Shown here: positions 9,201-42,053 of the stretch, one piece after another | Numbering within the stretch: position 1 is the first letter of the stretch | Layout of the letters: every line of letters starts with the position of its first letter | NCBI GenBank assembly: GCA_001724265.1 | Contig: MEDY01000141.1 | Span: 1 to 64,000 of the forward strand | Origin: Rhizaria sp. SCN 62-66 | Taxonomy: Eukaryota | Direction of reading: 5' to 3' | DNA length: 64,000 nucleotides | Translations under genes and position numbers: made by a program | The notes under the pieces: generated by a model | The model's database searches: none | What the model was told of the DNA's origin: nothing | Seen by the model: the letters and a program-made list of their open reading frames with translations, nothing else

Positions 9201-12200
9201 AAGTGTGGTGTTGGTCACTCCAAGCGCAGCAAATGTGCAGGCCGCGTCAGATGCTGACAGCGTAAACTGAGCAGCGGTAGCAGTAGGTGCTGGAAGTAAG
9301 CGCACACAAATCGTGGACACCATCTGAACAGCAAGGCGTGTCATTGTGGCTTTGCCGGCAAGAGGGAACACTGAAGAGTGAACCACAGCGGGGTCTTCCA
9401 CCCACGCTGCACCACGGACACGAAACGAAGCGCCCGAGAAACGATCATACCAGCTGTTAATCTCGTTATTAATCGCAATGATTGCGGGACCAAATTCGGT
9501 TTCAGTTTGGCAGTTGATTGCAATATCGACAGTAATGGTTGTCGCATCAAATACAAGTTGCATTGGCCCATACACAAGCGCTAAACCGATAGAGGCATCC
9601 TCTGCGGTGCGGAATGCGCACACGGGAGTAATCGAGCTCAGCGGCTGGACATTAATTGTGAGTGTTGTGTTAAGCTCAGCAATGGGGCTAATGCGCAAAG
9701 TGAAAAACCAGTCCTTATTTGCAATAATCTCGCCAGAAAACGCGGTTGACGCTTCCACAAGTGCGGTAGTAAAAAAGACGGAGCCGCGGATGTGCAGTGG
9801 GACTGAAAGCACAGGAAGATGGATGTTGCCTGCAACAACCTCTGTCAGAATGCTGACGTCTTTATTACTTGTTGCAGCACATGACGCATAAACAAGCTTA
9901 TACGTGTCACCTAATACAAACTGAAGCGTCGCAGTCGTAGAAAACTGCGCAACACCAGTAGTTGAGTACGTCGTAAAACCGCACATTCCAACGTTACTGG
10001 TGAATGACACACGCACATTGGCAGGAGAGAGCACAGCAGGGATCATGCGCACACGCAGAGCGGTCACATTAGCGGCCGGTGAGCGCAGGTAGTATGGACT
10101 AGGCAGCACCGCAGCGCCGGAGGGCGCCGCAGTAAGACTAAACGTATCGCGCGAGTCAAGATCTGTGATTTCGCGGTCTACTCCAACAATTCCAGCAGGA
10201 ACAATAAAGTCAAGACTAATAAGACCATATGCCGGGGTAGGACCCAGTCCAACGCCAATGTACGCGTTGCCCTCAATAATGATGACCGAACCAATATTGT
10301 GAGCGCGACGACAAGTCATGGTTGCAGTGAAAGGCTCTGAAAGCTCCTTCTGCACGAAGATTGGCTCGCGGATTGCTGCGCTAGAGCCAATTTCAAATAC
10401 ACAGTCGGAAGACGAAGACATTTGCTTGATGGCGATGGTTTGCAGCGTTAAAGGCGCGGGAGAAAATGTTGCAGTAATCGTGTACCGCTTAAGCACAACA
10501 AAGAAATCGAATGTCTCAACTGGAGCATCATCGATCAAAAACGTAAGCGTACCGCGGGTCTGCAGCGGCGCAGAAAGAAAAGGAGCGTAATAAACCAGCG
10601 CGTTGGGAATCACACGTGCAGAGATGTGCGGTGGGACCGACGCGGGGTTTGTGCAGATCACTGTTATAGAAAAGCTTGCTGCACCACTTGCAACGGGGAC
10701 TTGAGTCTGCGCAGCGCCCTGCTCAGCAAAGGTACACTGCGCAGTCGAGCTGGTAAATGACAGCTCAAGTGTTGCAGCTGTAGGCAATGCGGGACTAAAG
10801 GCAAACTCAATGGGGACCAATGCGTTAAGGGGGAACTCTTGCACAACACTCTCATTATTAAGCTTTTCGGGCTCCATATCACCTGCAGCAGCAATGCGAA
10901 CACGGCCAAGGAGATGCATCTGCAGCGGTTGCCATTGAGCAAACATAACGGTTTCATCCACATTTGTGATGCGCGTGTCCATTATCTCTGACTCGCGAAT
11001 TGACGTGCAGACAAGCTCAAATGCTACAACACCGTACATGGCATCAGTCGATGACACGAGCATGGAGAGTGAAGAAGAGGACGTTCCGTTGCGGCGAAAC
11101 GCACAAACACCCGTAAAAATGTCGCTGACAGATAGCTTGACAGCCTCCGTGCGTGTTGCGGGAAGCGCCCATTGCAGCTCAAGGACAACAGGTGTGTCGT
11201 CAAAAAAGTACTGCGGTACAACAGGAGTAGCAAAAGCTTCTCCGGAAAGAGGCAAGGGGCTGAATGTAGTGTCGACCACGGCAAGTTTGGGTTGAACGTA
11301 AAGCGTGAATGAAGTGGGATGCATCGAGAATCGCGGAGGATACAGATGCGACTCAGCGGCGCGCACCAGAGTCACGGTGACTGTGTTGTTGAGAGCAGTA
11401 AGTGAGCAGATCATAAGAACAGCTTTGCGCGCTACGTCCTGCAATGAAAAGCGTGCGGTGAGTGTCGGTGTAATAATGCCTGCAAACATTGCGTTTGCGT
11501 AGTCGCTTTGGGTACGGATAGTGTCTAAAACCGCCAATGCGGACGCGGGCGCAAAAGCACATGCATCGCCACCTGTGTGGATATAGCTGTTGTTGGTGAA
11601 ACGGTTAACAACAGCATCAACGGCAAGCTCAATATACATTGGAGTAAATATTGGCAATGTGGCATACAACGCAAGTGCAGGGGGGTAAACGGGAATGAGT
11701 TTGACTTGCGAACGTAGCCATGCAATGATAGGATTGTTCGAAACAATATTGTAGCCGGTGGCAGTCTCCGATAGGACTGTAATTGCAAGACTGACCTTGT
11801 CTTTTGGTGCAATGGCCTCAACGCAGCGCATCATAATAGTGAAGCTCGAGATCATATCGAACTCAAGCTCGCGCAAGGACTGGCTATTATATCCAATTTC
11901 GCAAGGCACAGCCAACGGCAGGCCACTACGAAGCAGTTCAAGACGCACACGCGTGGCAGAAGCAAAGGCGGGTGTTGCATACACAGTGACGTCAACCATT
12001 GAAACAGGTGCGGCACCAATCTCAAACTCAAATGGCACAGGCATGTCGGCTACTGCATATACACTGCCGTAGACGCGCTTGGGCGGAAGCAAGGCCCCCG
12101 CAAAACCCTTGTCAGTTTCAACCTTAAGTGCGACCGTTACGCCTGAGCTTGTTGGTGTCATGCACCGCATGCGCGCAAGGAGAATTGTGTTGACAACAAT

Positions 12201-15200
12201 GCGCGCGACGTCATCAGGAAGCACAATTGAGACAGTCAGCTCAGCCTCTGGCGCAGCCACTGGCGGCTCAGCGGCGACAAGAGAGCAGTCACCGTCATTT
12301 ACCGGTAATTGGAGCGTAAAGTTAGTAGAGTCCACCATTGTAGCATCCATGCGCACAGCGATGTCAATATCAACGCCAGCAGGGTATTCCGTTGGATTGG
12401 CGCCAGGCGGGGCAGCTACACGGGGAGTGGTCGTCAATGTATAGGTTGGGCGAATGTGAATAACGCTCGTCAGAAGGCTCGGCTCAGCAATAGCAGAGCC
12501 TGCTTGCAGTGTTCCAACCCAAGCAGTTCTCTCAACGCGCAGCGGGTTTGCAAGCGCGGTGGATGCAGTGCAGTAGATTACAAAAAGTGTTGATAATGCT
12601 TCACCACTGATCATAGATACGACAATCTCCGCAGCGCCACTGGAAAATGTACACGGTGGAGGTGTACCATCGCCCAACTTTAAACGCAGGCGTAGCACGC
12701 GCACACGCGCAAGGACGTGCTCATCGACAATAGCAATCGGCGCCGTAGAATACGGCGGGTGTGTGCTGAATTCCCTTGGCACACCCATGTCATCAAGCGT
12801 GACAATCGAAAGCTTCCAGGCATAGGAGTCGGCAGGCGCAGGTGCAACGCGGGTATTTACGGCGGGTAAAGCAAACACAGACATGCGTGCAGGACCGGAT
12901 ATGCCGGTTGCATCAAGTCCATTTGTCGACCACGCGATGTCCTCAGGATTGAGCACAACTATGAGAGGTGAGCACGACACCGAGGGCTCGTGTTCACTTT
13001 CTGCAATAGGATTGCGGACGCTGTCGACAGTCACGGTGATTATTGCCCCCACTGACTCAGGAAGGGGGAAAGAAACAGTGGCTGATGCGTCGACCGTGAA
13101 GGCGCTGCTAACACCATCAATTGCGAGCTGCGTAACCTCCGCAAAAGAGGATGACTGCGGACCCGTAATCGTGCACTGCATGCCCATTGTGGGAACCACA
13201 AAAGAGCCGAGCGAAAACTCGATAGTCCAGCTACTCAGCGCACCACGCTCGCGAGAAGTCATGGTTGTAGTGCTGTCAGGCTCCTCGGTGGAGCGGAAGA
13301 GCTCAACAATACCCACGCCATTAAGGCTCCCCATTACGGCAAGGTAGGCGCCGTGCTGAGAATAGGCCATGCTAACAATCTCAGTAAACGCGGTCATTGT
13401 GCTTGTGTAATAAAGCGCGAACTCATTCTCAAGCGCGGCGGCGATGTTGGCGCGAGAGAGGTCACGAGTGGGGCCACGCGGCACATGAACAAGATGGCCT
13501 GAGCTGGCTGCAACAGGCAGAATGTAGCAATCTAAATCACCGTTACGGAGAATGCGCACGGGAATAATGGTAGCACTGTCCGCACAGGAGTACATCAGCA
13601 TCTGACCAGTTGGATGCACAGCGAGAGTGGCAACGGGACACACTGCTAAAAACACGGGGACGTGCTGGGCGCTAAAAATAACTGCACCACCAACAACCGA
13701 GAGCTTGGCAGTAAGAATAAGACCCTCCTTAGTTGCAACATAAAATTCACCAGTTGGCTTATGCAAGGCGGCGGCTGTCACCGTGATAGGCGATTCACTG
13801 AGTGTTAAAGTGTCGGGACAACTGAAGCCCATGTGCTCTGTCAAAATGTCGTTCATCGAGCGGTCTGAAAGTCCGAGGTTTTCACGAATCGACGCATGAC
13901 ACACGCGGACGGCACCAGAGCGGTAGAAGAATGCAACACGCGTTGATGCAACACCAAGAAGTAAAGGCTCATCCGCGGTCCAATCAAGAGCAGCAACCAC
14001 AACATCACCTGCAACAGCGCTGGAAAAGTTAATTGGCGATTGTATGCGTTGAAGCAGCTCACGCGTCAGAACATTGTCAGCACCAGAAGCGCGAAGCGTG
14101 CGCGGGTTAAGACGCACAAGCATCACGACTTCAGCATCGTCATTGTACACGATCACAAGAGCGCCAGTAAGCTCTGCGGAGCTCACAACATGCATGTGTG
14201 CTGCACCACTTAAGCCCAGACGATGAGCAAAGAGAGCGCGGTCAAATGGCAAGTCAAGATAGTCGTTGTGCGGTGCAGGCTGGGGGTCCTGGCCAGCTAG
14301 AGTGTGGAAGCGGAGCGCATCTACGAGCCCTGAGCCGGAGGTTGACACAAGCGAGACAAGCGTGCCCTGCGCACCATAGGCTGCAGCTGCGTTGGGAGCT
14401 GGGGCAGCAAGCGCGGCGCGCGCCGGGGACCAGTCACCAGTCATGTCATACGCCTGGTAGCTCATCTTGAAACAGCCGTGATGACCGGCAGCGTGGGCGT
14501 AGCAAAGCGAGCTGCCGGTGTTCGCGTTCCAGCTCACAGCGCGCGCGGTCGAAGGCAAGTGACCGGCGGGCGCGCGGTGAGAGTAGCCAAGAGCGCCGCT
14601 TGGACGCATCGCAGGGCGTGGAAACCGCAATCCGTTTGGCGTTGCTACGGGGGTAGCACCGCGTGAGGCGGTGAGGGCGGTTGCACCAATAAAGAGAGAC
14701 GCAGGATCGGAGAGCGTGACTTCAAGATTGATTGCAAGGACCAGTGGAGCGCCAGCAATCACCGACGTGACGGGGCTTCCTCGGGGCGTGCATGTTACGG
14801 CAGTGCCGGTCGGGACGCAATCAACAGTAACAACCCAGTCAACATTGATAGCGCGCATCTCCACAGTCTGAGCCGCAAACACACCATACGGCTGTGCAAA
14901 CGACCACGTAACTGCGCCATCGTGCACCGCGTTAGGGGACGCAAACCACGCACGCCAGCGGCCCGTCTCACCAAAAACGGGCACTGAATACTGCGCCGCA
15001 ATAAGACTGGGCGTAATTAAAGCAAACCAGCTGTACTCAGGCAGCGCAATGTCCGTCACAGCAGCAAAACCAGTCGTACCCGACTGCTGCAAGATGAGAC
15101 GAAGAGCGACGGCTGCAGGCAGCGCAGCCGGACCTAAAGTTGTGGGCATAGGACCTACTGGAATCATCGCGGTGTAAGATGAAACATAGTCGGAAATAAA

Positions 15201-18200
15201 GGGGGCCGGCGCGGTAGCTAGTGACAGTGTAAGCTTGAAGGTGTTAACTGTGGAAGCGTCGTACGCGGTGCGGATGGCCGCGCTGACGTTAACGGTCTCA
15301 CCAAAGATATTGCCAAGGGCGTCGTAATAGCGGCTTGAGAGAAACAGATCGTGTGCAGCGGTGACACCAAGAAGCTTGATGCTAAGCTCAGATGACGTCG
15401 GTGCAGCGGCAAGACCTGCCTTTAAAGTCGGCATTGCTGTCACAAGCAACCACTGGTCGGGCTTACCAATAGACACAATGAAGACTTCACGGTTAGCCAT
15501 AGACAACAAGGCAGGCGCGCTAAGCTGCGCAAACGCTGCGTTGTTCGAGAGAAGGGAGATCGAGAACTCTGCGGACACGGTGGTTGTTTCGTAATGGCCG
15601 TCGTCAGTTGTGCGGGATAACACTATGACAACGCCCGTTGTAGCACTCGCAAGCTTGAGCAAGACAATCTGATGCGCAAATGCAGTGAGCTTCATGTCCA
15701 CGATAGAACCGCCGGGTACGACTGCGGCGGTAATTGCCTCAAGTGACTCCAGGTTTACGCGGTGGATAATACTAAAGTCATCATTCTGAAAAAGGCGCAC
15801 AGCAATGAAAACGCAGTTGTTGCTCCCGGTGCGGCCGTTGGAGGCTGCGTGACAAATATCGACCGAGGTGACAGTGGCGCCATCGCGGTCATCGGTAAAG
15901 ATTGTTGTAACCGTGTTAGCATTCCAGAACAAAAGAACGCAAGCAGATCCCTGTTGCAAAACACGGGCGCAGACAACAAACCCCATGTTAAACGGCGAAC
16001 CAGCAACAGCGGTAATGACTGCCGTGTTGTCCGCTGCAAAGGGAAGCAGCGAGGTTGAGAAGCTCAGAAACCCGTTGAAGGAGAGGCTGTACACGTGCAC
16101 AGCGCTGCCAGCAGCAACAGTGACTGTTGCACCAGCACTGCGCAGGTGCCACGCCAACAGAATCGGTGCATGCAGAGGCAGCTCAGTATTACCAAGAGCA
16201 GCACTACTTAGTGACAGTTCGGGGAGCGAAACATCGGCAGTAATAAATGCCTCCTCTGAAGCAGTCTCAATGACAAGGATGCGGCGGTTGTCGACGTTAA
16301 CAAATAGCGTGGTTTCGTCAGGCGCAACAGTTATTGCGTAACGCGCACCATCTAAGTCGCTAATAAGCTCAACCCAAGCTGCGCCGCTGGCGCTAAGCTG
16401 GGGCTCGCGAAAGGCGCCAGTTGAATCGTAAGTGACGCCTTGCTTAATACTATACAACTTACCTTCACTGACCACATATAAATAGTTCCCGGAAAGTGAA
16501 GTCGCAGCCGCAGCAACTACAGAAAGCGCTGGCAGAGGATCAACTGATGTTGCGAGGCGCACGTTACGGGGAATCAAACGGTTGCGAGGCGCGGGAATTG
16601 CGGGAGTTGCCAGGGTCTGCGAAGAAACCAGCTTAGAGTTATTGTAGAACGCGAACGTAAACAGACTGGCCTTTTCAGAAGGCTCAAACGAGTCCAGTGC
16701 GCGTGCAGTATGAAACACGTCCGGGAATACAACAGTAACCGAGTCCGCAGTCTGGGCAAAGGCGGCTGGCACTGAGGTAGTGCAGCCGCAGGTGGCGGGC
16801 AAGAGCGCCGCAAGATCAGCAGCGGGGTCGGCGTGGGTAGTGGCAGTGTTAACAAACAGCAACGCACCATTTCCGGCAGCAGGGCAATCGCCGTAAGCAA
16901 CAGGTATAGTATCGAAGCTTGTACCGGTCATGTGCGTGAGCATTATGGTTGACTGGGAGCTAGTGCCGGAAGGCAGCGTGAAGCAGATGCGAGTTGCATA
17001 ATTCGGCAGCGACTTTAGGTGCAGACGCAGAGCAATCGAGAACTTGTCACCGAGACCAGCAAAGCCTCTAAGAGGACTTGCATTAGAGCTGTAAAAAGGC
17101 ACAGGGCCCACAGTGGCAAGCGTGCTACTCTTGCTAAGAAAGTCGAGCTCTGTACCTGCAGTAAATGCAAGAGGTACCAATGGCTCGACAACATTCACCG
17201 CATTGTTGATGGCGGTTGTGCTCGTGAGAGAGCTGGTTATACTCGCGCTGCTTACAGCGGTAAAGTAGCGCGCCGTCTTAGAGGCCGTGTTTCCGAGACG
17301 CATTGCAACGCGGGCCGGGGTAGCGCTGCTGAGCAGGTTGCGCATAGTTGCGCCTGCCCCGTAGCGCAGGTGAGAAGTGCGGATCACACAGGCAGTGTCA
17401 GCGGCAAAAGCTGTGGGGGTGTAGTGCAACGAGTAATGGAGGGTCGGACGCGCAAGCAAGGCGCCAGAGCTATCATGCGCAAATGGGGAAAGTGCAATCT
17501 TCGGTGCGTCCAGCTCAACGGAAGGAAAGCCACTGCATTGCATCGTGGTCTGACTGAAGGTTGGCACAAAAAGCCGCATGTTATTAAAATCAGCTTCAGC
17601 AGCAAGCTGGTGCTCAAGAAACAGCGCAAGGGACGATGTGGCGATAATGTGTGCTCCCGCAGGCACAGTAACAGAGAGCTCAATGGATAAGCTACGGTCA
17701 TATGAAGATCCGAAAGGAACGGGGGCAACGACAACAGTCGCGGGCGCAGACGCAGGGTAGCCAAAATCACTGCGCAAAGGCTCCGTTGCGTAAGCTGCAT
17801 TTTCAAGAGGGGCAAACGATGCCGATGCAATTGAAACCGTGTACACCGCGTTGTACTGTGCTGTTTGTGCGTCAACGGTTACGTTGCGGAACAAAACAAG
17901 GAGCGGCTTGCGTACAGGCCAACCATGAGCCAGCGTGACAATGAGTTGAGATGCTGAGCTTGCGGTTCCGACTATCGAGCCCAAGACCTCAACACGATCA
18001 ATGTCGTAGACTGCGCCAGTGACGACAGGCGCGGAGGCGGACACCCAGGGGAGAGTTACAGTGAGCGAGTGGCCGGGAGGTACACCGAGAGCCGAGGTCA
18101 CCACAAGCGCGAAGTCAAGAAGGTCAACGTCAGCAAACACAGTGGGGTAATATGGGAGCTCAGAGGGCAGCGCAACTGCGTCAGCGGGGAAGCCATCGGC

Positions 18201-21200
18201 GGTCGTGGAATAGAAGAATCCATACTGAGATGCGGCGATGTTCTGAGTTACATCTGAGGCAACAGTAGTATCCGACAGCGTGACGACGGTGGTGCCTGTC
18301 GTTGAGGTGACTGTAAGCAATGAAATTGAAGAAACACAGTACACACCCGGCACAACAACCTTGAAAGGACCAGCGCCCGCGACCGCGGGAAGTATAGTAC
18401 AACTCGACACAGGATACGAGTCTGCGGTATCAGTGGTGAAATCCTGGAAACTGAGACGCTTTAAATTGTCGCCAATGGTCAGTGTTTCATGGGCGCGCAC
18501 GGGCACAAAGTGGCAGTTGGCGTCAAAGGAAAGAGATAGAGCCATACCATTGAGAGCGTCATCGCTAAGCCCGGTAAACGTGAGCTCAAGCACGGGCACG
18601 GTCTCAACTTCAAACGCGCGTGAAGTGATGCGACCTGTGACGGGCAAAGGCAAAGTCGATTGGTCGGTAGGCAGCGTAGCCGTGAAGACGTAGCGGCGCT
18701 GGCCGCCAGCGGAGAGCACGGTAAACGTGAGATAGTCCGCACCAGCGCCAGCAACAAGGCTTCTAAACGCAATTTTAATTGCGCTATGAGCTGCACCCAA
18801 ACAAATAAAATACGGAGCAGCAACTGAGAGTATAAAAGCACGGTTGGTCTGCTTCTGTACGGTAAGCGCAACAGGCGACTGCGCGGCACCGGTCATGTCC
18901 CACGCCGGTGAGAGCGTGTACACTGCGTCGTTATAAGTCTGCATTGTAGCCGGGTCAAGTGCGCTTTGCGGCAACACAAGCTCAATTACGTCGCTCGACT
19001 CAAGGGCAATTGCACCAGCGTTGCAAAGACTTGCAGGAATGTCAAGCTCGTAGTGCTCAGTGGTAGCCGCGGCGTCGCTAGTAGCGGCAATCGTAGTTGT
19101 ATGCACTGTGGCAATTGGCAGTGCGTGAAGGCGAGGCAGCGCAATTGCACCGGTATAGAGAAGTGCAGGTGAAACCACAATGTCAGCAAATATATTCACG
19201 CGCAGCAATGTAGCCTCCTCAGCAATATGCGTGGGCGTAAAAGCTGATGCGATATGGACAACCCACTCGCCTTCAGCAAGGAACGTACATGGGGTCAAGA
19301 AGCACGACAAGCTTTGGGCGCCATTTTGCGCACTAACGTCTGAGACAACGCTGCATGTAAGAGCACACATATTGCCACTTTGCTCAAGAGTAAGCTCCCC
19401 ATCCCCACCTGTTCCAAGAATGAAATATGCCGATGTTGAAGTCCCACCAAGCAGGCTCAACTCAAGAGAGTATTCTGCAGCGGTATTAAAAACAGGAACC
19501 GTTACGCGCACAGACAAGGCACCACTGTGCAGACCAGAAACAGGTCCAAAGACAGCGTTGTCGACGGTCATGTCCATGGGGCCACCACCTAGGGGCGCCA
19601 GCAGAGCGACAGCGCGCGCGCGGCCCCACACAAGGCGGAGCTCCAACGAATCGCGAACAAGCGGCAGTGTGGACGAGATAACGACATTCATGCGCGTAAC
19701 GCCAGTGGTTGCAAGGCAGGGCTGCATCGCAATGGGACCGCCAGCGACAGCAGGGGTCAGCAGAGTTGCAACTGGGTGCATGCATTGGGCGGACTCGAGC
19801 ATAACAGTAGGGCCAGCATCAGCACCAGCACGGTGCAGGATCAACGTCGGTGCAGTGGCGCTGGTGCTAGTAAACAGCTCGGGCCACGATACCGAGCAAA
19901 TAACCTTCTGTTCGCTCCCGCTGGTGTATGATGTGCAGTCTGCAGCGACAACAACAGGCGCAGTCGAGATTGTGGTGCTGGCAGTCGTGGAGGAGACAAC
20001 AATGGTTGTTTCAGTGGCAAAACCAAGATTGTTCCACGCGTCAAGTAAATCAGACACTGTGTTGTTCTCGCCTACAGTGGCAACATGGCTGATAACAAAA
20101 AATGTAGCGGCAGTGTCCATTTCAAAAGGTGCAGTCACATCCGTCACTGTGACGACAAAGTGTGCGTTAGATGATGCTAGAGAAAGTGTGACAGAATTGG
20201 ACTCAACAGAAGCAGGTGTGGTAGCAACTCCACCGTCAACAACAACACTATACTTGGCTGCAGAGTATAAGAATGTGGCGGTGGGGAGAGAGACGACAAC
20301 GAACTCGGTCAGATGTGCGAGAGGCTCAGCGTCAAGCGCAATTGTGACTGTAAACACGGCAACCTCGTCAGCAGACATTTCCACAGTAGCAGTGGCGGTG
20401 ATGTATTGAGGTTGCGCAAAGGCGCAGGCCTGCTGTGCCGGAGTCGCAAACGATGCAATCGGCACAGAAGCATAAGGACTCATGTCTGTGCCGTCGGTGG
20501 TCATAATGCTGACAATGTCAAATGAGTTGACAAGTGTTGCAGCGCGCTCCACGGAAACGCTTAGGACGCACGGTGCGAGTTGTGTGCACACGCTCGTCGC
20601 GCCTGTTGGCATTGTGGGAGTAAACGTTACGGCGCCATTTGCGTGCACCGCAGTCCAGTCAACTGCACCTGAACTGAACACCTCCGCGGCGGCAAAAGGG
20701 GTCATGGTCAAAGAGCTTTTCTCAGCAAGTGAGACAACAAATTCAAGGTTACTAGTGGGCTGTAAGCGTAACTCCGCAAGTGTAATTTTGACAATGAGCT
20801 CACCCGCTGCGTTTGCGCCGAGCGAGGCGGAAACCATGGGATGAGTCCACGGGGGATGAACATGATTCCCAACTGAATCGTGTCCGTCCGCAATAAGAAT
20901 AGCCTCCAAGCAGCGACTGCCCCAATATGCGGGCGCGTCAAACGCCTCAGACTCAGTGCTTAGCGAGCTGTATCCAAAAGCAAAAACGTCCGCGGGAAAG
21001 AAGGGCCCGCCATTGCAGCGTGCTATAAGGTCAGTTTGAGTGGCCGACTCGAACGCGCAGTTTGAAGAGCGTGCGTGGAATCCTGCGCTACCTGCCGCAG
21101 TAAAAGACACGCCCGATGGACAATTGTCACTAGTCGTTAACATGCTAAGCGCGATTGTAATGGTTGCGGACTGGATTACGGTAGTAAGCACCAACACTGT

Positions 21201-24200
21201 ATCCAGGCGCGCAGTCGACACACCGCCTGCCTGCGCAGTTTCACGCTGGAGCGTGGCTTGTACCATGAACACGTTCTTGGGGGGCAGCGCACCAACGGCA
21301 ACTTCTCCCAGCGACTCCTGGTAAAGGCCGTTTACAGGATGTGTTGTCAGCCGGAAGCAGCTCTTGTCAAGTCCTTTATCAGGTCCATAGCCGCTGGCGT
21401 TAACACCAACAAGCGAGTAGGCCCCAACAAGCTTGATATTGACAAAGCGGTTAACAGGCGTCGGCCCGCAGCCAGAAGAGATAAACACGTAATCGAGAGT
21501 AGTGTCCGCACTGAACATATTATTGCACGATGAAGCGAGGTTCAGTGTCGTAACGTTAGTGGCAGTCGCAATTGACGTTGCAAGCACGCCGCATGTAGGC
21601 GTTGCACTCGCTGTTACACTGAGCGTTTGGTTGGCAAGCACAGGATCATTAAGGAATAGAAACAGGTTAAGATCTGCATGAAATGAGTCACCAGCCCATT
21701 TAATGCCAGAGAGAACAGCCTGAAACGCGAAAGTCGACGGTGGAAGAACCGCGGGAGCAAGCAAGCTGCCACCATTGAGCGCAAGCAGCGTATGCACAGC
21801 CATCTCGCCATTGTACAGCTCCAGCGCAAGAACGCTTTGGAAGTCGGACGCATCAAACGTGCCAAGCTCGAAGGGAACCTCAAGCGTTGTGAACAGCGCA
21901 AGTGCAGTCTTTTGTCCCGTTGCAAAGGTACAAGCAACATTGCTATCTGATCCGGAGATGTAGGCGCAGTCGGTGTGACCAGAGTTGGGAGTTGGCAATG
22001 CGCGCGTTGCAAGCTGGAAGGTAGAGGTAAAAGCGTTGGTGTTCGTGATAGGTTGGATGAAGTAAAACTGTAGCAAGAAGATTTGATTCGTCAGTGCAAG
22101 CGCGTCAGGCGTTGTGGTGTTCTCGCCAGTGATTATGGCGGATACAGTCACGCGCTCACTTAGGAGTACCGTGAATGAAGGTTTCGAAATGGCGGGGTCA
22201 AGGCGACTGAATCCCAAATCGGTGTTAATAGCCGCAAAAGCGGGCTGACCCAAAGCGGTAACAAGCAACGCGCCAGAGCGAACAAGCGGGACAACGTGTT
22301 CGTACTCACCAAAAGTTGCAACGGTTGCACTAAAGCGCAAGGTGCGAGGTTGAAAGAAGCGCGCTGTTGCGTGAGCGGGAACCGCAGCACAATGTGTGGC
22401 GGTAATTGTTGTCGCGTTTGTAACAGTGATGCTGCAACCAAGGTCGCTGCCGGTTGCAATCACGGTCATGGCACTGCCAGCGAAGGCAATCAATGCAGCC
22501 ACTTCGGAGTTGTCAACACGAAGAACAAAGCCCCAGTCCGTAACAAGCGTTGCCGCGGCGCCATGGGGATACACGGTCAGCTCCCATGTGAGCGTTACGG
22601 GTGCCGACGTGTAGTTCACAGAAGGATCAACAGCGGTTGTGACTGAGGCGCCGACAGGGTAGAACAGGAAGTCAAATGGACGCGTGACAGCGCCAACAAA
22701 TACGGTAGTGTCGCCACCCCATGCTGCTGTCATACTTCCAGATACAAAACTTAACGAAAAGCACGTGCTCTCAATGCTATAAAGACTTTGCTCGGCGACG
22801 TCAAAGCTCAACGCATACTGGGCGGAAAGAGCAATAGTGGTGTTGGACACAGCCGCACTTTCAGCAAGTTGGACCGTGACTGCTAATCCGGCGCACACAG
22901 TAGTGAGCTGCCAGGCGGGCGCCACACTCTGCGTCCAAACCGGCGTCAGAAACATATCGAGCCCGAGCACCAAGAAATGCGTGGCGTCGGAAGATGCCGC
23001 AGGCGCCACGTGGCGTGAGACCTGCATAACACGCCAAAAGTAGTCCGGCGCGTTTGTAGGTCGCAGCTCGAGATCAGCTTCAGCAATGACACCTAGTAAC
23101 GGATTTCCAGGCGTACGCAGGCGCATCGCAGATGCCAGCATCTTGAAAGGGTCGCTTGCAGCCGCGCGATGCAGATGGTTGCTGTAGTATGCGAAGCGCA
23201 AGCCCTGCACAGTGCACGAGAAGGGCACTTCGGGAACAAAGGAACCAATGAGTTCAACGCTGAGCGTAAGCGCGGACTTGGCCGCAAGCGCGCACGATGC
23301 GCCACCCACAGTCACCTGCGAGAAGTCGAAGGCGTTAGCGTCCGCGGCGTCAAAGTAAATCTTCATCCCTGCGTCCAACACCTCACCGCTGATAATCTCG
23401 AGCGCGCCTCCTAAAATGGGCTGAAGGTTTAAGTGTGTGGCCTCTGGGTTCAGTGCGAGTGACGTAGCAGTGTAGGTAAAGCGCACAAGTGGTACGCGGC
23501 CAAGACTAGCGGGGCCAACGGGCGTGATCAACGCCGAGTCAGCAACAGCCATAAAGCGGAAGCAGCTAGCAGGCACAACGCCGCTGGCAATGGTAGGCAT
23601 AGTCTCGACGCGCGGCGCAGTAAAGGCGCCGGGCACGTAAAACACAGCTTCGCGAGGTTGCGGCGCAGAGATACAGGTTGCGTTGAGTGCGAAACCAGCA
23701 AAGCCAGTCAAGTAATTTGCGCATGTAGAGTCTGCCCCAAGGTTAAATGTGTGTGCAGGCACAGTTGCTGAGACTGCACCACAATCAGCTGTCAAAGCAA
23801 AAGAATGCGCAATTACGGTGGCGCCAAGTGGAAAAATGTAGGCGTTAAAGTCCGCAGTTACGTTGGTACCAACCCAGTGGCGTGTCGGCAGCTCCACGTG
23901 TACCGCAAAACGCGGGTTAGTGGGATCCAGTGGAGAAACCAGCGAGACGCTCGCCAGCGCAGACAGAGTAGCGGAGGGCAGCGCGGCAAGGCCATGCGGC
24001 GTGCTCTGCAGCGTGAAGATAAAGTCGACGGGTACCGCAATGCTAGCCGTGTACGGCAGCTTGAACGTGGCCATGACAGACGCCGCAAGCTTGGTGTAGT
24101 CGGGAATTGTGCATTGAACGTAACCAAGGGTCAGTGTAGAGCAGTTACTGGTGGGGCTGGTAGGTGCAGCTGTGGCCAGTGTTGCGAGTGCATAGGAGAA

Positions 24201-27200
24201 GTTCAATGCGAAAGCATCAGTGCGGCGGAGGAAGAAGACATTGAGCCTGTAAACCTGCTCGGTCTCGGCAACAGGAGCAGGGGGCTAGGCGACTGGGTCA
24301 TTTACCGTCACCAAAGTCACCATCTTGCGCCATAGATGCACTTGAACAACTGCGGTCGGTGCGGCCAGTGTAAGTTCTGTGATGTCGGTGTTGCGCTGAG
24401 GAGCCAATGCGGAAGGTGCCGAGGCAAGTGCAAGGAACGCGCCGTCAGTGCCGTTGTAAGCCGCAGTGTAGATAGCCTCGTAGTGATTGTGACGCATGCG
24501 CACAGGGCCAAAGCGGAGAGACACGGGCGCAAACATCTCCCTGGCGTTGCTCGCTACAGAAGAGCATGCACTAAACGTGACGCTACCTGCCGTAAAGGTC
24601 AGAGAGCATCCCGCAGAAGCAACACCACCGAAGCCCGTGACGCTCAACACAGAACGCGCAGTGACGCTGTCATCGGCAAGGGCGGTTGCAAGCGCACCTG
24701 TTGCAGTGAGGACAGCGCCCCAGCCAGCCGCCAGGGCCGTGTGCGGGAACACAGTCATCTCAAGAGTAGTCTCAACCCAAGCTTGCTCGGGCGCTGTGCT
24801 GGCGACTTCTGCTCCCGCTGAAATCATTGCAGCTGAGACGGGAAAAAGCGTGAAATCGAGCGCCCATGTTGCTGTGGAGGGAATGTCGGCGCGGAGGCCA
24901 ACAAATCCCGCGACACCGGTGGGGATCTGCAGCTCAATGCATGCACCAAGATCAAGCGGTGAGTACGTCGAGCTTGTGTAGAGAAATGACACGGAGAAAC
25001 CCGCGGCAACCTCCGTGATGCGATACCCCGTGCTGTTGTTAAGCGTGAACGATGGACCCGCGGCCGCGCCAACAAGCGTAACGCCAGCGGTACATGCGGC
25101 CTTTACGGCCACAGTAACAGGGCCTGAGGTTGCGACTGTCGGTGTGGTAGGAAGCAGTGTAAATGCAACTTCCGTGCGGAGAACCTGCGCGGCGGCTGAC
25201 GCCAGAGGCGCGCGCATTACACGTCGATCAACAACACGGTATGCCCAAAACAGCGGCGCGACTGACGCTGGTCGAAGGTTAAGTGCATTGGGAATAAGAG
25301 TGCGCATGTTGCCTTCGAATGCAACTAACGTGACTGCGCTCGTGCGCAAGACGTACGGGTCCAGCGCCGACTGGCGATGCGCTGCATTGTCATAGTCAAG
25401 GAGAAGAGCGCCAATCGGGCACGTGACAACATCATTGGGGGCGTGCGTTGTTGTGAATCCAATGCGAATAATCCGCTGTGAGCGCTGCAGCAATGTGCAG
25501 CCACCGGTAAGCGTAACGTTCGTGAAGTCAAGCGTGTTTAATTCAGCCTGAAGCTCAAACCAATAATCTGCTGCTGTCGTGTCAAGCAAAGTAATCGTCA
25601 AGGTACCGGAAACCACAGTCACATATTGCGTTGCTGTGATCTGCGCCATTGTTAACGTGCTTGCTGTGTAAACAATGTCGGGGGTAGGAGGCGCAAGTGA
25701 CTGTGCAATAATAGAGTTGGTCTGCTCTGCACCCAGGTGATACTGAAAGCACGTCTCAGGGAGCACCCTGGCTTGGTAAAACGCGTTGGTTTGAAAGTTA
25801 GACATAGCGTAGCCGTCTGTCACTAGCACAGTGAAGGCCTTTGGCTGCGGACTTGGTACACACGCATTAGTAATCTTCATAGGGCTAATTGTTGAGTTGC
25901 TCGCGCACGCGGTGGTCAAGTTCAAAAAGCTAAGGTTGGCGGCAACAGCCAGATTCCGTGCCACGCCGCAGTCACTGGAGGACAAAACCAACGAGAGGTT
26001 ACTGGCACGATAGAAGTCCGACGCCAGAGGAAACACCACAAGCACAAGGCGCGAAACAAGATTACCGCCACTCAGCACAAACTTATCGAGTGCGACAACG
26101 AAATTAAAAGGGATCACAGGCACAACCGCAAGTTCAAGCAGTGAGCCACCGACAAAAGCGTTGTGAGTTCCCGTATATGCGATCGGGGCAAGAGCAAGTC
26201 CGGCAGGCTCAAGCTTTTCGTATGTAGCGCTAAGGGCAAAACCAAAGTTGGTCGTGTTAAAAGACGCAATGTCCCACGCTACAGTAAATGTCATGGTGAA
26301 CGTAATTAGCTGCAACGGCACGCTAGTGTTAGGAGTGGCGCAAGTGACTGTGCGCGTGGTCGCGACCGCAGTGCACCCCGACGGGACGACGGCAGCTTGA
26401 TCACTCGTGAGTAGCGAGTTATCGTAGCTAAAAGTGAAAGAGGCTGCAGTCACTTTTCGCATCAGGTACAGGCTTGCGCGATAGGTCTGAAGCGTCTTTG
26501 CAACTGCAGAGGGTGTCGTTGTGCCGAGTCCATTCATAGTAACCGCAGATACACGCTTTGTGCGAAACTCAACGTGATAGGTCGGTTTGGAGAGAGTTGT
26601 ATCAACGCCAAACTCAGATGTGATATCGTTGATTTGTGAGTTCGCGCTGCTCTGCCACACAGATTCAAACCAGCGCGTGCCTGTGGGGGCTAAGGGGTCC
26701 GTAAAAACGTTGTGGTACGCGTTGAACGTTGTACGTACAGGGCCGATGCGCAACACACGCGGCAGATACTGGCCAGCTGTAGAAGTCACAGAGATGGATG
26801 AGCACGCCGTCATACTAAGCTCGGTTGTGGACACGTAGGTAGCAGAACAGCCGCCGTCAGTGAACGCGGTCGCGCCGACCACGGCAACCTTGGTTGTGGT
26901 TGAGAGGAATGACATCACCGCCGGCTTTGTAATGCGCAGATTGAATGTCCAGCCCGGTGTCATTTGTGCGGATGCGTACAGATACACGTGCCAGTATGAG
27001 TCAACCATTGCAAGCCCGGCAACATCTTTGTCCGAGGTAACAAGCCCAGTCACAAGTGCCGCCGTGTGAGGATTAGTGCCAACAAGCAGGCCACGGGTGA
27101 CAGTCACGGTCGACAAAACAGCGCTTGCGGTTGTTGTCGATGTCAGCGTGGCTGTCGTGTTGATCGAGAGTGCAAGGCAAGTGTTGAGCACAAAGTTGTA

Positions 27201-30200
27201 GAACTGCGTGGCAGTGTACAGAAACTTAACACCAAGCGATGAAGACGAAAACTTATTAACAACCGAGTTTGTAGGGAAGACAGTGCTAACAGACGTCAGC
27301 AACGACAGCCCTGCGCAGGCAGGCTAAACGGACACAGAAACGGCAGTCGGAGAAAGCGCGCGAAGTGGGTAGGCGTTGTAAATATAGATGTTGACCTCAA
27401 GTGTAACGTAATGCTCGTTACGCCCGTAGTCAGCAGCATACGCGCGCTTGCTCTGCACCATGTATGAGAAGAAGTCACTGGTGTTTGCTGGCCGCATGTT
27501 GATGACATTTAATGATGGCACTTTCTTGCTCTGATAAGCAAGTGAATAAAGCTTAATAGCAGTGCTTGGCAGCACAAAAGGATCACCAGGGGTTGCGAGA
27601 GCGCTGTTGGTAAGTGAAAGAAGCCCCATATTTTGAAGTGTACATGTAATTACGGAATCGCCGCCTGAATATGTTACGGTCGTTGTTTTAAACGTAAATG
27701 TGCTCTGTGAACGCGAAACGAGAGTGCATCCACTGCCGCTGACAACATTGACGGACGTAAAGTCGACTGCGTTACTAGTAAACGCAAACTGCGAACTCGA
27801 TGTCAGAGTGTCGTCAGTGACGACGTTAAAAGTGCCCGTCGCTGAAGCGGCAGCAATGTCAGGCAAGCCCGATGTGGGGGCCAGTGTAAGCGACACAGGC
27901 GTGTATGAAAAGCGCGATGAGATTGTGCGCGTAAAACTGACATCGTTGATTGCGGTTCGCATTACGGTGCCTTGTACTGTCGTAAAGCAATTGAATGGCA
28001 ACACCATGTTGCTGAGAACTGAACTAAGAGCAGTCCCGTGATCGAGTGTTAACGCAGCGGAAAATCGGTACTTAAACGGCGTCGCTGGCCGCGGTAGGCA
28101 TGCCACTGGCGGATCAACGTAGAGTGAGTTGTACGCTGCGCACTCAGTTGACAGCTCGGGATTTACGACGCCGATCGGATTGCTAAAGTCCAACGAGACG
28201 CCAGCACACACTGGATTTGTTGATAGGATCACGAGAGTTTTGTTGAGAGGAACACTTTTCGTATAGCTCCGATACAAAAAGTAAATATCAATGCTGGCCA
28301 CGGTGCGGTTTGGCGACATAAAAAATTGCGAAGACGTTGTCACAATAAATGGTTGGACAACTGAATCAGCAACGTCATAGTCGGAAATTCCCGACAGCGA
28401 CGGCACAACAGTCCTTGCAGAGGTACTTGGTGTACGCACAGCATCCGATGAAACAGTTGTGGTGCTAATTGCATAGTTTGTACTAGAATATACAACGACT
28501 CCGTATGGAAACCGACAAGTCCCACAAATTTGCATGACGTGGACAGCCATGTACGCCGTGGTGGAGCCGCCAGAGATTGCACAGGTGACTGAAATAATCG
28601 GGTTTACGCCGGTGGTGACTACAGGCGCGGACACGTTACAGTTTGGATGTGGATATTGCTGGGGGAGTATAGTATCGCTCTCAACAGTTGACACAGCAAC
28701 GTGGTCGTTCGCGTCCAAATAGTCGATGACGCTGTACGGGATCTGGAAAGACACCATCATTGCGGTCGTGCGCCTAAAGCTGATAATAGAATGACTGTGC
28801 GCGCCGGTACGGTAGATATTAGCAGCGGAAATGTTAGGATATTCACCAACAACGACCGAGCTCGACGATGTTTGCAGATCAAAATAGCTATTTTGCAACC
28901 TGACAATTACTACAGGCTCGGCGTCAGTCATAGTCACATCAGAAAAGTCGGTATTGACAGCCAGCGCATCCGCCTGTGGAGGCGTTGTTGCAACAGCACT
29001 TACACCGGCACTTGCAAGCGACACTGCAAGCAGCGCATCGTATTGCGCAAGCGTGACTGTGACGGGGCCAAACCGGAGCACGCGCGGGGTAAACACACCG
29101 GGGGCATCGGCAGTCACAGCGGCACAACCCGAGAATTCGAGGCTCTGTACGGTCAAAGGCGTTACTGTCGTGCACGAAAAAGACTGTCCTGTCACAAGCA
29201 CGGTTGCGTCCGTAAAGCTAAATAACGACGCCAGTACAGACGAAGACAGCACGAGGCGGAAGCCCCAGTTGGCGGGCAGCGCGGCGTGGGCAAAGATTGT
29301 GATCTAGAATGACAGATTCCACGGAAAACTCATAATCGCAAGCTTGTCGCGTGTCCGTGTGTCGCCCCCTGGCATCCGAATCGCATAAGGCGCAAACTGC
29401 ACGTCGTACAGCTGCGTTTGAGCGGTCGTCGTCGCAGTCACAGAGCGCGCCGGCGCAGCGGTGGCGGCCGAAGCAAAAGACATCACGAGGCAGTCTGCGG
29501 GAGCGGCAATGCTGCTGGTGGCAACGGCAACAGAAATGGTCGTATCAGTGCTCACGACAGCCATCGCGCTGCTGCGGACAAGCGTGCCCGTGGCACCTGA
29601 GATTATTGTTACGTCAGAGCAAACAGAGCTAAACGTGTACGTCTCGTTGACAGAGGCTGGCGCAGTAGGGTACACATATGCGCGCAGCTCATAAGCGTAC
29701 TGGCGCGCGCTGTTTGTAACCGCGCGCCGCACGCGCCGCAACAGCGACAGAGGTCGCCAGTGGAAAACAGGGGCCGGACCGCTCGGGGGCGGGCTCAGCG
29801 CAAGGCTGCCGGCCGCGTCCACGACCGTAGCGCTGCTTTCGAGCGAGAGACGCAGCGCGCCTGGGACAAGTGTGTACAGCGTTGGCAGCGCTGCAGAGCC
29901 GACAACAGCGGTGAGCCTCAGTCCGGTGAGGATGCATTTGACTGCAGTGGCGCTGGCAACAATGCGCGTGACTTCGATGTGCACGGAGCTGTTTGTGGCT
30001 GTGATGAGCGCGCAGTCAGACCCGCCGGCAGCGGCGGCGTCGGCGGCTGACACGGTTTGCGCGGCGGAGAGGTCCAAGCCAGCAAACGCGCCCTCGGAGC
30101 GGAACATGAGCTGTACTCCGCGGACTAGCACCGCGCCGGGGGAGATGGAAAGCCGTCCCGTTGCCACAACCACAAGCGTTGTTGCAGAAGAGAGATCGGC

Positions 30201-31923
30201 GCCAGGCGTGATCGTGAGCGCCAGAGGTGTGTAGCTGAACGAGGACGTCACATCAGCAATGACGCCACTAACAGTGCTCGCGGCGTTCATCGTGGTCGCA
30301 AACACGGCGCTGCTGTTATCAACTGCAACGCGCACCAACACTGCGTTTGCGGGCATCGCCGCGCCGGGCAGCGCTGTTGTGCTGCCGAAGAGGCCGGTCA
30401 GCTGCAGTTCAAGGCTGTTGCCAGTCGCCGCAGCGAGGGCGCCACAGGGGCAGCGGGCGCTCAGCACGGTGTCCCCGGTCAGCGTTACATTGCAGCCGGC
30501 GTTGGCAACTGCCGCGGAGGCCGCGAAGGCCAGCGGCGCGGTGGCGGCAAGGCGCAGCGTAATGACAGCATGTGTGCCGAAAGTGCACAGCGCTTCGGGC
30601 ACGGCGCTGCCGCGCCACGTGCGCAACACCGCAGTGAATAGCGAATTCGCCGCGTCGACCGCGGTGGCCGTGAGGAGAGTCAGCGACAGCGCGGTTTGCT
30701 CGTCCGTGAGCGCCGCCGTGTACGCCGCCGTCGCGCTGCCGCAGCCGAGGTATTGATAGCGCGTGGCAGACGTGACGCGGTCCTGCAGCGCGGGCCGCAC
30801 GCTGAGAGTGAGCGTGTCGGCGCTCTCACCATCGGCAAGAGCCGCGGGCGCGGGGATGCGAAACCACAGCGACATCGGCGTGTTCTGCGCAAAAACCACG
30901 TCTGTGAACGCGGCGCCGAGGTTAAGTGCAAACACCGCGCTGGCGCCGTTGTCGAGCGCGTTCACGGCGGTAACATCGGCGACCGCGTCAGACATGGCTC
31001 CAGGCAACACTGGTGCGGAGAAGGGCAGTGAAACGCTGCCCGGCGCAACAGCGGCGAGTAGTGAGACCGAGCCCGCGCGCACGGCTGTCAGCGAAAGCAC
31101 AAGGCGCAGCGCGGGCGCGGTGTTGAAGCTGGCGCGAACGAAGTCCTGTAGTCGCGTGAGCGCGGCGGTGTCCCAGTCCGACAGCGCGACGTGCACAAGC
31201 AGCGTGTTGGCGTCGCTGGCGACGCGTGTGACGGCGAGCGCGGCGCGGTAAAGCGGACGCGTGACGAGCGTGGGTGCTGCTGTGAGCGCAACGGTCCCGT
31301 CGAGGCGCAAGTACTGCGTGGCGAGGGACACGAGTGCGGGGCGCCAGAGAGCGTCGGTCGAGGAAGAGCAGCCAGGCAAGGGCGCCGTGTCGCGAGTCAA
31401 CGCAGAGGTCGTCCAAGCGCCCACGGGAAAAGACGCGGGGGGCGCGGTATCGAACGCAGACGCGGAGCTAAGAGTTGAGCATTTGAGAAAATACGATTAT
31501 TAATGTGAGTATCAGCGAGTTGTACATGTGTGTTATATTTCATTAATTTTAAGTTGTGCAAGATGTTAAGACGTACCAGCTGCTAATGGTGATAGAAGTG
31601 GCCCCGGAGGCAACAGTCGCGCACGGAGTCTCCGCGGCGCGGACTGCAAGCGCGAGGTACGCGGCGGCGGGCGCCACGAAGGTGATATTGGTCGCACTCA
31701 TCGCGATCGCAGACGCCGCACATAGCGCGGTATCCAAGCACGTGACGGCAACGTCAACGTCGAAGATGATGGTGCGCGAGGCGGCCACCACGCTCGGGGC
31801 CGAGTCGTACACGGTCATCACGGTGGACAACACGCGGAAGCCTTGGAGTGTCGCCGTCGTCACGGCGGTGGCAGTGGCGGGCGAAGTGAGAGTGAGCACA
31901 CTCAGCAGCGCAGCAAAGAACAT
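240..31923 (-). CDS. Giant (~10,524 aa) signal-peptide-bearing multi-pass membrane/adhesion-type protein. Exon 1 31923-31577, exon 2 31467-240, with three in-frame TAG codons read through (29304-29306, 27324-27326, 24285-24287)
   Basis: ATG at 31923 starts a hydrophobic signal peptide (MFFAALLSVLTLTSPATA). A phase-2 intron (31576-31468) joins it in frame to ORF 29304..31424. ORFs 29304..31424, 27324..29252, 24285..27302 and 240..24206 share one frame and are separated only by single TAG codons. The gene ends at TAA 240-242. Spliced length is 31575 nt = 10525 codons. Domain order: ~750-aa repeats, beta-propeller-like segments, Cys-paired Ig-like repeats, 8 Sushi/CCP, calcium-binding EGF, IPT/TIG, CxxC (GCC2/GCC3-like) repeats, TM bundle. 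Confidence 0.8.
930..4290 (-). other. C-terminal multi-pass transmembrane region of the giant protein, split by a long Ser/Pro-rich low-complexity insert (~3900-1620)
   Basis: Hydrophobic helices (VAYLIMIATFAAAVVVCGVL, FWVTSIGIMFLPLMGLLLPMLFF, FFVVTLGLPMLIFWVVGIPFFAWYML and others). The motif FLYRGYKPKRYYWFLVEMARKACLV resembles the TM tails of large protist adhesion-like proteins. Confidence 0.75.
4930..5930 (-). other. IPT/TIG-like domains followed by CxxC repeats (GCC2/GCC3, ephrin-receptor-like)
   Basis: TIG-like: LTVSGSGF...ISGRQC...CRLPAGTG and LVLRGENFG...IGGLLC...CYTPG. Repeats: CPPGQH, CAPGTA, CIAGFY, CPVGTY, CPRGTF, CAPGTF, CPLGA. Confidence 0.7.
6745..8640 (-). repeat. Eight tandem Sushi/CCP (SCR) domains plus one calcium-binding EGF domain
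   Basis: Eight repeats of C...Y/F-x-C-x-x-G...C...G-x-W...P-x-C (e.g. YEYGCESGFTLNG..CTAGGWSSVTAPLC; AVYTCETGFILSG..CTASGTWLPASPTC), then DIDEC...CVNTFGSYVC. Confidence 0.85.
8650..12800 (-). repeat. About 10-11 tandem ~110-aa beta-rich (Ig-like) units, each with a Cys pair
   Basis: Recurring C-x-F-like motif (PPCTFS, DACAFA, GVCAFR, AQCTFA, SDCVFE, GMCGFT, PVCAFR, AACTFA) with a second Cys ~25-35 aa later, at roughly regular spacing. Confidence 0.55.
13280..16500 (-). other. Two beta-propeller-like (WD40/YVTN-like) segments in the ectodomain of the giant protein
   Basis: Blade-like strings: YAITVAPDETTLFVNVDNRRILVI, ITVTAAALHKPTGEFYVATKEGLI, VATLAVHPTGQMLMYSC, IVSMAYSQHGAYLAV. Confidence 0.5.
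21000..31460 (-). repeat. Four to five diverged tandem ~725-775-aa protein repeat units at the N-terminus of the giant protein
   Basis: A landmark motif recurs about every 2.2-2.3 kb: YLRLDGTV (~31305), PRVLRFGPV (~29075), PRVLRIGPV (~26750), PVSLRFGPV (~24512), PRTLRFSATV (~22338). Other recurring motifs: DPFVLPSTAIKL / DPYVLRTSAVTL / DPFKMLASAMRL and INMRPAN / LNLRPAS / LELRPTN. Confidence 0.75.
31468..31576 (-). other. Spliceosomal intron (109 nt, phase 2) of the giant gene
   Basis: Minus-strand donor TG|GTACGT, AT-rich body, acceptor CTCTTAG|C. Splicing gives ...ITISSCSASAFDT... in frame. Confidence 0.85.
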
Positions 31924-41238: not shown

Positions 41239-42020
41239 ATGTCCCAGCACTGCTCATGGGTCTTCTCATGCAGCAGTAGCCCTACCGCCCTCAACTCGTA
41301 CGTGTTTGATTTGTTTTTAAGACATGCGATTAGCCACGCGCTTATACTTCTTCTGGCGCATTTTATGTGCTTATTGGCATTTTGCCCCCTTAGTACGACA
41401 TGATCTTCTGACTCACACCATGATGTTTTTTTCAACCGTTCCTTCCCCCCCATTCGCCCCCACAGCGACGATGAAGCAGCGTTCCAACCGCGCTCTCTTC
41501 CGTCATCTATCTCGGTGTCTCTGCGCGTCTACCCCGCGCCCTCCGTGCTCTCCCCACTCAACGTCTTCCCTCTCCACAACGGCCCCGCCGCCTCCGCCAC
41601 CGCTCCTGTAACTTCCGCCGCGTCGGCGTCCTCTTCCGCTCTGCCAGCGCCGCTCTCGGCCGCCGACGCTGCCCCCAGCCTCCCCGCGGCGGCCGCGAAC
41701 ACTTCCGCGCTCGTGCAGATCTGGTCCGCCTCGCTCCCGCTCCCAGAGACCGAGGCCGGCGCCGCGACCGCAGACTCCGTCGCTCACGACGCGAGTGTTG
41801 GCGCATCAGAGCGTGTGACGACGACGACGACTACTGTGACGGTTCCGTGCCCGCGGTTTGCGCGGATTGACTGGTCGGAGTTTGCCGCTGAGGACGAAGC
41901 CACACTCACGGTCACGCTGCCGCCTCCGAGCCCCGTCGCAGCGGCTGCCACTCCTGTTGCTGCTTTTGCTTCGTCCTCAACAAACGGCGCTATGACGGCT
42001 ACGATGACAGCCACTGCTGC

Positions 42021-42053
<33 letters not shown>

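Follow-up and report, generated by a model that had tools for sequence, protein, structure and literature searches.

Few nuclear codes treat UAG and UAA differently, and a code with UAG as Glu and the other two stop codons retained would add a new translation table. As far as the cited sources describe them, UAG alone has been reassigned to Leu in the rhizarian exLh and to Gln in Iotanema spirale (PMC5304391), to Leu or Gln in phyllopharyngean ciliates, to Gln in Protocruzia tuzeti and to Ser in Scotinosphaera (PMC11687900). UAG is described as Glu in the peritrich code (NCBI table 30) and in the Blastocrithidia code (table 31), in both cases by way of a tRNA-Glu(CUA) (PMC12153298), and in Oligohymenophorea sp. 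PL0344, in which UAA encodes Lys (PMC10553269). The reassigned codons of Blastocrithidia are reported to be depleted from abundant proteins (PMC12153298).

Here we analysed a window (the whole stretch of 64,000 nucleotides) in which a giant gene is interrupted by TAG codons, and compared it with further loci of the same genome. Our main finding, which goes beyond the single-site claim of the original prediction, is that the proposed reassignment is genome-wide and confined to UAG. Judged from codon alignments, a tRNA gene and the release factor, the nuclear code very probably assigns UAG to Glu and continues to terminate at UAA and UGA; under this code, the TAG at 29304 would be Glu837 of a full-length, membrane-anchored protein of 10,524 amino acids. 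In practice, standard gene callers truncate the proteins of this organism at TAG, and the public entries P0242, P0241 and P0247 correspond to fragments of the giant gene cut off at its three TAGs.

The TAG at 29304 and its repeat

Read on the minus strand, the CTA at window positions 29304-29306 is a TAG, and the translation around it is WNLSF*ITIFAHAALPANWGFRLVL. The frame around it spans 10,418 codons up to a TAA at 240-242 (-) and holds three internal stops, all of them TAG. With one intron removed, the product is 10,524 amino acids long and the TAGs are codons 837, 1497 and 2510 (Table 1); no joints across this 109-nt intron were seen in the RNA contigs. The C-terminal Sushi, TIG and ephrin-receptor-like matches, together with a TRP-like region that scores below the Pfam cut-off, suggest that the product is probably a membrane-anchored surface protein. 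Codon 837 is spanned with 0 differences by a 1,902-nt contig from run X2, part of the study that may have yielded this genome, and by a 533-nt contig from run X4, which belongs to another study; as both carry the same bases, an assembly error is an unlikely source of this TAG.

Table 1 Features of the giant gene, its repeats and its neighbours (window positions unless contigs are named)
Feature	Position	Strand	Remarks
Exon 1, giant gene	31577..31923	-	347 nt; ATG and hydrophobic leader, signal-peptide-like by eye
Intron, giant gene	31468..31576	-	109 nt, GT-AG, 31% GC; inferred from DNA; joins exons in frame
Exon 2, giant gene	240..31467	-	TAA at 240-242
N-terminal repeats, ~720 aa each	exon 2 of giant gene	-	no Pfam match
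In-frame TAG, codon 837	29304..29306	-	inferred Glu; repeat beta strand
Second in-frame TAG, codon 1497	27324..27326	-	single aligned partner is Lys; X2 contig across
Third in-frame TAG, codon 2510	24285..24287	-	no aligned partner; X2 and X4 contigs across
Repeat copy 2, homologous column	26988..26990	-	CAC (His)
Repeat copy 3, homologous column	24759..24761	-	GAG (Glu)
Repeat copy 4, homologous column	22581..22583	-	GAG (Glu)
Sushi	about 8196-8318	-	giant gene exon 2; Pfam, above cut-off
IPT/TIG	about 5388-5564	-	giant gene exon 2; Pfam, above cut-off
Ephrin-receptor-like Cys repeat (Ephrin_rec_like)	about 5034-5138	-	giant gene exon 2; Pfam, above cut-off
TRP-like membrane region	about 930-1631	-	giant gene exon 2; below Pfam cut-off
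Neighbouring gene	frame 41404-48525, to 48921	+	long, low complexity; CLASP_N match weak, below cut-off
Two in-frame TAGs, neighbouring gene	45583-45585, 45715-45717	+	frame 41404-48525
Two TAGs, likely last exon of neighbouring gene	48820-48822, 48859-48861	+	read through to KCCAVV, TGA 48919-48921
GDT1 antiporter, peptidase C69, DUF5107, DUF2838, cactin	34316-63998		all end in TAA or TGA
Paralogue contigs	G000: C68, C295, C363, C408, C412, C417, C518, C547, C556, C646, C693, C704, C707		

The repeat was aligned by a search of its own genome (35 matches to the region), retrieval of the paralogues and an iterated HMM/MAFFT profile alignment, which gave 22 homologous units: 3 other copies in the window and 19 units from paralogous genes. 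The original prediction placed the TAG inside a conserved repeat motif with continuous homology on both sides, and the formal alignment supports this, as the register is kept across TAG 29304 without a gap in any of the 22 units. In alignment A1, with the query entered as TAG=E, the column ranks with those that hardly vary. The predicted Glu, Glu and His of the three window copies were confirmed as GAG, GAG and CAC; over all 22 units the column holds Glu 20 times (GAA 12, GAG 8), Asp once, His once and Gln never. Of the proposed choice between Gln and Glu, the polar character and Glu (20 of 22) therefore stand, whereas Gln (0 of 22) does not.

An alignment-based structure model of the repeat (mean pLDDT 64) places the site in a strand at 125-136 with a pLDDT of about 83-85; a single-sequence fold was unusable (pLDDT 31.5). 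The repeat was modelled as beta-sandwiches, the best fold match having a Z of 7.1 and an rmsd of 2.8 over 102 aligned positions, and such matches appear too weak for a family to be named. An Atlas search with the repeat returned unnamed clusters alone, under 0.9, and relatives outside the organism were absent among 1.84 billion representatives, where all 7 matches were its own genes, three of them fragments of the giant gene cut off at its TAGs. Paralogues of the repeat protein lie on at least 13 further contigs of G000 (Table 1), and several copies change frame.

Stop codons and residues across the genome

The genome comprises 34.9 Mb in 714 contigs. Stop codons were scored in a non-random sample of 787 kb (149 overlapping records, about 2% of the genome), in which the kinase and giant-family loci had been chosen in part because they contain TAGs, and the giant family had also been used for training. 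The test covered 127 stops, each preceded by 60 coding-scored codons. Separately, two L032 sites, and probably L011, lie opposite real genes in antisense and were set aside. The 32 TAGs comprised 20 internal, 7 unclear and 5 terminal cases, and by hand count 12 of the 20 internal ones lie outside the giant family. None of the 58 TAAs was internal (8 unclear, 50 terminal), nor was any of the 37 TGAs (4 unclear, 33 terminal). Among the five terminal-scored TAGs, two follow a splice donor, one is a family Glu column and two have short open tails to a TGA, 16 and 19 codons downstream (window 48859 and L117); no clean TAG gene end was found among the 32 TAGs of this sample. A donor-like motif also precedes about one-third of the TAA and TGA ends, and is absent before 29 TAAs and 21 TGAs.

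Kinase-domain matches (n = 142) were interrupted by TAG only in 9 cases, by TAA only in 1, by TGA only in 0 and by a mixture in 4; of the 9 TAG-only matches, 5 have the TAG in an exon, and in 4 it is a splice acceptor. Paralogue-supported family alignments (57,987 codons) contain 25 TAGs, 4 TAAs and 3 TGAs, and all 7 of the TAAs and TGAs lie at frame edges, beside apparent introns or frameshifts. Random nonsense mutation would not be expected to leave this pattern. TAA or TGA is the terminator in the dyneins, in eRF1 and in the genes of the window.

TAG is rare overall, at 0-2% of Glu codons: 3 of 352 in the giant gene, 25 against 1,581 GAG and GAA codons in the family alignments, and 0 against 2,062 in the 31,546 codons of the GC3-rich dyneins. 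The long frames of 10 dynein heavy-chain genes hold no exonic TAG, so the dyneins are uninformative about the residue. Such scarce use is what a young or slowly decoded codon would show, and it is compatible with partial termination as well.

The neighbouring gene on the plus strand ends, once its last two TAGs are read through, in KCCAVV, which we take to be a CaaX-like motif. By eye, its C-terminal part resembles a metallophosphoesterase (no Pfam match). An ATG directly precedes an in-frame TAG four times in this gene (45580-45717 and 48817-48861, +), and again at L117 4899 (-) and L138 1393 (+); a seventh case, at L011, is probably antisense. The same pair occurs at 0 of 30 giant-family sites, and Met makes up about 2% of codons.

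The residue was assigned from aligned partners. For the 30 TAGs of the giant family, alignment supplies a partner in 21 cases, spread over 18 independent columns. Glu is the best partner in 10 of these columns, Ser in 3, Leu in 2 and Tyr, Lys and Gln in 1 each, and the codon of the best partner is GAG in 8 columns, GAA in 2, CAG in one and TGG in none. Log-likelihoods over the family favour Glu (-42.2) over Gln (-51.4) and Lys (-55.0), and Glu won 1,873 of 2,000 bootstrap replicates against 83 of 2,000 for Gln. At the columns that are not Glu, one is Leu in 5 of 5 partners, one is Ser in 10 of 16 and two are Gln-rich. A hand-summed Pfam panel scored 8 residues at 7 sites outside the family, with PF00069 for the kinases (bits: E 697.2, K 695.9, Q 694.2, D 693.6, S 692.5, Y 687.7, L 685.6, W 682.3). 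Glu ranks top at 4 of the 7 sites and leads Lys by 1.3 bits; the panel rules out Leu, Tyr and Trp and sets the polar residues apart only weakly.

One ubiquitin copy fused to an S74 domain has TAG where near-identical intact ubiquitin genes carry CAG. In this copy (L155, G000:C681:3012-3600), a ubiquitin domain without a start Met is joined to a Peptidase_S74 (endosialidase chaperone) in AT-rich DNA; it is possibly part of a mobile element. The non-Glu columns, the ubiquitin-S74 TAG and a Val in the closest eRF1 relative (see below) count against Glu but may reflect tolerated missense or decaying copies.

Decoding of UAG and competing readings

The tRNA pattern search gave 21 matches, with 19 loci scanned, and an Rfam tRNA search scored 63 of 506 candidates. 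A single tRNA gene with a CUA anticodon was found, at G000:C84:76008-76080, with a full cloverleaf and 1 match in the DNA search; 30 pattern matches were obtained for a tRNA(UUA), and neither of the 2 TTA-type matches that were retrieved is a tRNA. Among 39 distinct tRNAs, tRNA(CUA) aligns best with tRNA-Glu(CUC) (score 68), followed by His (52), with tRNA-Glu(UUC) at 51 and the two tRNA-Gln at about 32-34 and 25. Raw identity (47 of 73 for Glu(CUC), 47 for Thr and 46 for His, Met, Lys and Gly) does not discriminate its origin. It shares its first five acceptor pairs with both tRNA-Glu and its G73 with tRNA-Glu(UUC); unlike it, tRNA-Gln in this genome starts with G1 and ends with U73.

The tRNA also has U11-A24, U13-G22 and a short variable loop, which are listed among the determinants of E. 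coli tRNA-Glu (PMC9976931). The E. coli GluRS determinants given there include anticodon bases, and those of tRNA(CUA) differ from them; by analogy, the shared features may matter to the host GluRS. ARAGORN labels the tRNA as pyrrolysine, a label we rejected because the host is a eukaryote and the cloverleaf is of the ordinary Glu type. We propose that tRNA(CUA) would have derived from a tRNA-Glu and be charged by GluRS. A tRNA with this anticodon is not expected to read UAA (PMC11687900), so UAA is able to stay a stop; C34, with no wobble to A, would pair with UAG only. The rare use of TAG suggests slower decoding by the single tRNA gene.

Only one eRF1 was found (L043, G000:C63), the other PF03463 locus being Pelota-like by sequence; one of its three intron acceptors has no branch motif. 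The gene itself carries an in-frame TAG, at codon 111 of 441 in the N domain, equivalent to human E107, in a column that holds Glu in 106 of 117 homologues, Asp in 10, Val in 1 and Gln in 0. Residue 32 is Ser here and Thr in 117 of 117 homologues, which changes GTS to GSS. Further N-domain changes are G57S, T58K, L124M and L126M; position T99 is Glu, and L69 is not among the columns that differ. A yeast study describes T99A and E107A in eRF1 as lowering read-through. T32 is described as bonding the G of UAG and as being Gly in Iotanema (PMC5304391). Because T32A is reported to be lethal in yeast and an in vitro model ties T32 to the reading of adenine (PMC4381064), an effect of T32S on stop recognition is put forward as a hypothesis: T32S, perhaps with G57S, T58K, L124M and L126M, may weaken recognition of G in the third position. 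As this one genome combines the codon with its tRNA and an altered eRF1, discrimination between UAG and UAA by eRF1 becomes testable. The closest eRF1 relative, the public entry P0004, shares 84% identity across exon 2 and carries Val at position 107; it keeps G57 and also T32, which suggests that the T32 change is recent and makes P0004 a candidate sister lineage for dating the change of code.

The code proposed here has to be weighed against readings in which UAG still terminates. UAG may be ambiguous, being Glu inside genes with termination that is partial or falls near 3′ ends, as the tRNA and eRF1 compete; we judge this unlikely, though worth serious attention. The great rarity of TAG (none in 31,546 dynein codons), the single tRNA(CUA) gene, the mildness of the eRF1 changes and the two TAGs a few codons before a TGA are in keeping with it, but none of the five terminal-scored TAGs is a clean gene end, the tail of the window gene past TAG 48859 ends in a CaaX-like KCCAVV, and a 10.5-kaa gene with three UAGs, like an eRF1 with one, would lose product. 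This reading overlaps with the preferred one, and the residue is still Glu. We give little credence to a young, still ambiguous UAG=Glu in which a mildly altered eRF1 and tRNA(CUA) vie for the codon and the UAG within eRF1 itself sets up a feedback loop. In such a loop, more eRF1 would bring more premature termination on eRF1 mRNA and so hold termination at a level that UAG tolerates.

Readings that assign another residue, or no reassignment at all, fare worse. That UAG is Gln, as in NCBI table 15 or Iotanema, is highly improbable: Gln is absent from the 22 units at the 29304 column and from the 117 homologues at the eRF1 column, and tRNA(CUA) resembles neither tRNA-Gln (scores 32 and 25), although Gln came second to Glu in the family test (83 of 2,000 bootstrap wins), the ubiquitin-copy TAG stands against CAG and two columns are Gln-rich. 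A standard code, with the TAGs as nonsense mutations in decaying genes or as assembly errors, might be suspected from the frame switches in paralogues L130, L132, L133 and L142, from partner residues (S, L, K, Y, Q) that are one base from TAG and from the missing start Met of the ubiquitin-S74 copy. It is largely refuted, and has barely any probability left, as isolated TAA or TGA nonsense codons are absent, the partners are mainly GAG and GAA rather than the transition neighbours CAG and TGG, TAG is common to diverged paralogues and also present in eRF1, independent runs carry identical bases and a CUA tRNA exists. There is only a very slight chance that TAG 29304 belongs to a 3′ splice site or is altered by mRNA editing. 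TAG does serve as an acceptor here (4 of the 9 TAG-only kinase matches), donor-like motifs 273 and 249 nt upstream would give in-frame introns, and the site has no spanning RNA contig; such introns would, however, remove 84-92 residues that align with the 22 other units, plus a conserved Glu, the 80 nt upstream are 54% GC without a branch motif, and editing would leave no need for a CUA tRNA. Pieces from RNA run X5 flank TAGs and none crosses one, and this missing cover was not counted as evidence.

Host lineage and comparison with known codes

The data sets that match the genome come from bioreactors, wastewater and activated sludge; runs X6-X9, which have small word shares, were left out of this habitat reading. 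Spliceosomal introns and 11 dynein heavy-chain loci mark this uncultured protist as a flagellated eukaryote, which from its sequences is likely to belong to Rhizaria. Its ubiquitin monomers start MS-MQIF, and public polyubiquitins with SG or DG junction inserts (n = 8) make up 8 of the top 9 by identity among 120. An insert of one or two residues at polyubiquitin junctions is described as a rhizarian character (PMC12930898, PMC13746701). A search of the own genome for the polyubiquitin junction pattern gave no match, the junction not being assembled, and an eRF1 tree placed no named relative near this eRF1. The ubiquitins at L153-L157 diverge to an unusual degree, the best public match sharing 69 of 76 residues, and in two copies a short HPQ tail follows GG at the end.

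The only SSU rRNA gene found (L108, G000:C706:4459-8903) is divergent and carries four group I introns, the first with an ORF for a His-Me finger homing endonuclease (PF05551). It has an extra hairpin after helix 17, and this AT-rich rDNA contig may be another organism's. An extra SSU helix 17-1 is a marker of Heterolobosea (Tetramitia), a group in which, according to a 2025 paper on non-canonical codes, UAG is reportedly Gln in Dactylomonas. If the preferred reading is true and the host is a sainouroid-like cercozoan, UAG would have two meanings (Leu and Glu) inside one group.

The combination of TAG=E with termination at TAA and TGA is absent from all 27 NCBI tables (Biopython 1.87), and we found no earlier report of a nuclear code in which UAG alone is Glu in a literature search that covered few subscription papers. 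Among known types, that of NCBI table 15 and Iotanema was rejected, since few of the TAGs fall at Gln columns and tRNA(CUA) is not like tRNA-Gln; that of table 16 and exLh (UAG=Leu), since Leu scores 11.6 bits below Glu and tRNA(CUA) has a short variable loop; and those of tables 30 and 31 and of PL0344, since 0 of the 58 sampled TAAs are internal. Outside the code itself, the giant gene resembles giant protist surface proteins in combining Sushi, IPT/TIG and Cys-rich repeats with a multi-pass membrane region, and differs from them in an N-terminal repeat without a Pfam match.

The nearest precedents for the residue differ in what they do with the other stops. As in this genome, PL0344 is described as reading UAG as Glu by a tRNA(CUA) that is most similar to tRNA-Glu; there, however, UAA is sense and UGA is the sole stop, whereas TAA is the main stop here, and PL0344 is credited with 10 tRNA(CUA) genes at 69-93% identity to tRNA-Glu, against one at 64% here. 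In tables 30 and 31, as sourced, UAA is Glu as well, and UGA is Trp in Blastocrithidia, whereas no internal TAA or TGA was found here. The nearest precedents for the pattern of stops are the UAG-only codes, which by these accounts share with this genome a sense UAG that is rare and a UAA and UGA that terminate; a CUA-anticodon tRNA, as found here, is reported from two UAG-only ciliate genomes (phyllopharyngean or other). Like the eRF1 described here, that of Iotanema spirale is given as altered at T32 (T32G there, T32S here), and L69 is unchanged here, unlike in exLh. The residue sets this genome apart, as Glu is absent among those that the sources name for UAG-only codes (Leu, Gln and Ser). 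Although we did not find Glu reported for the UAG-only class of stop-to-sense codes, this is the class with which the tested features appear to agree.
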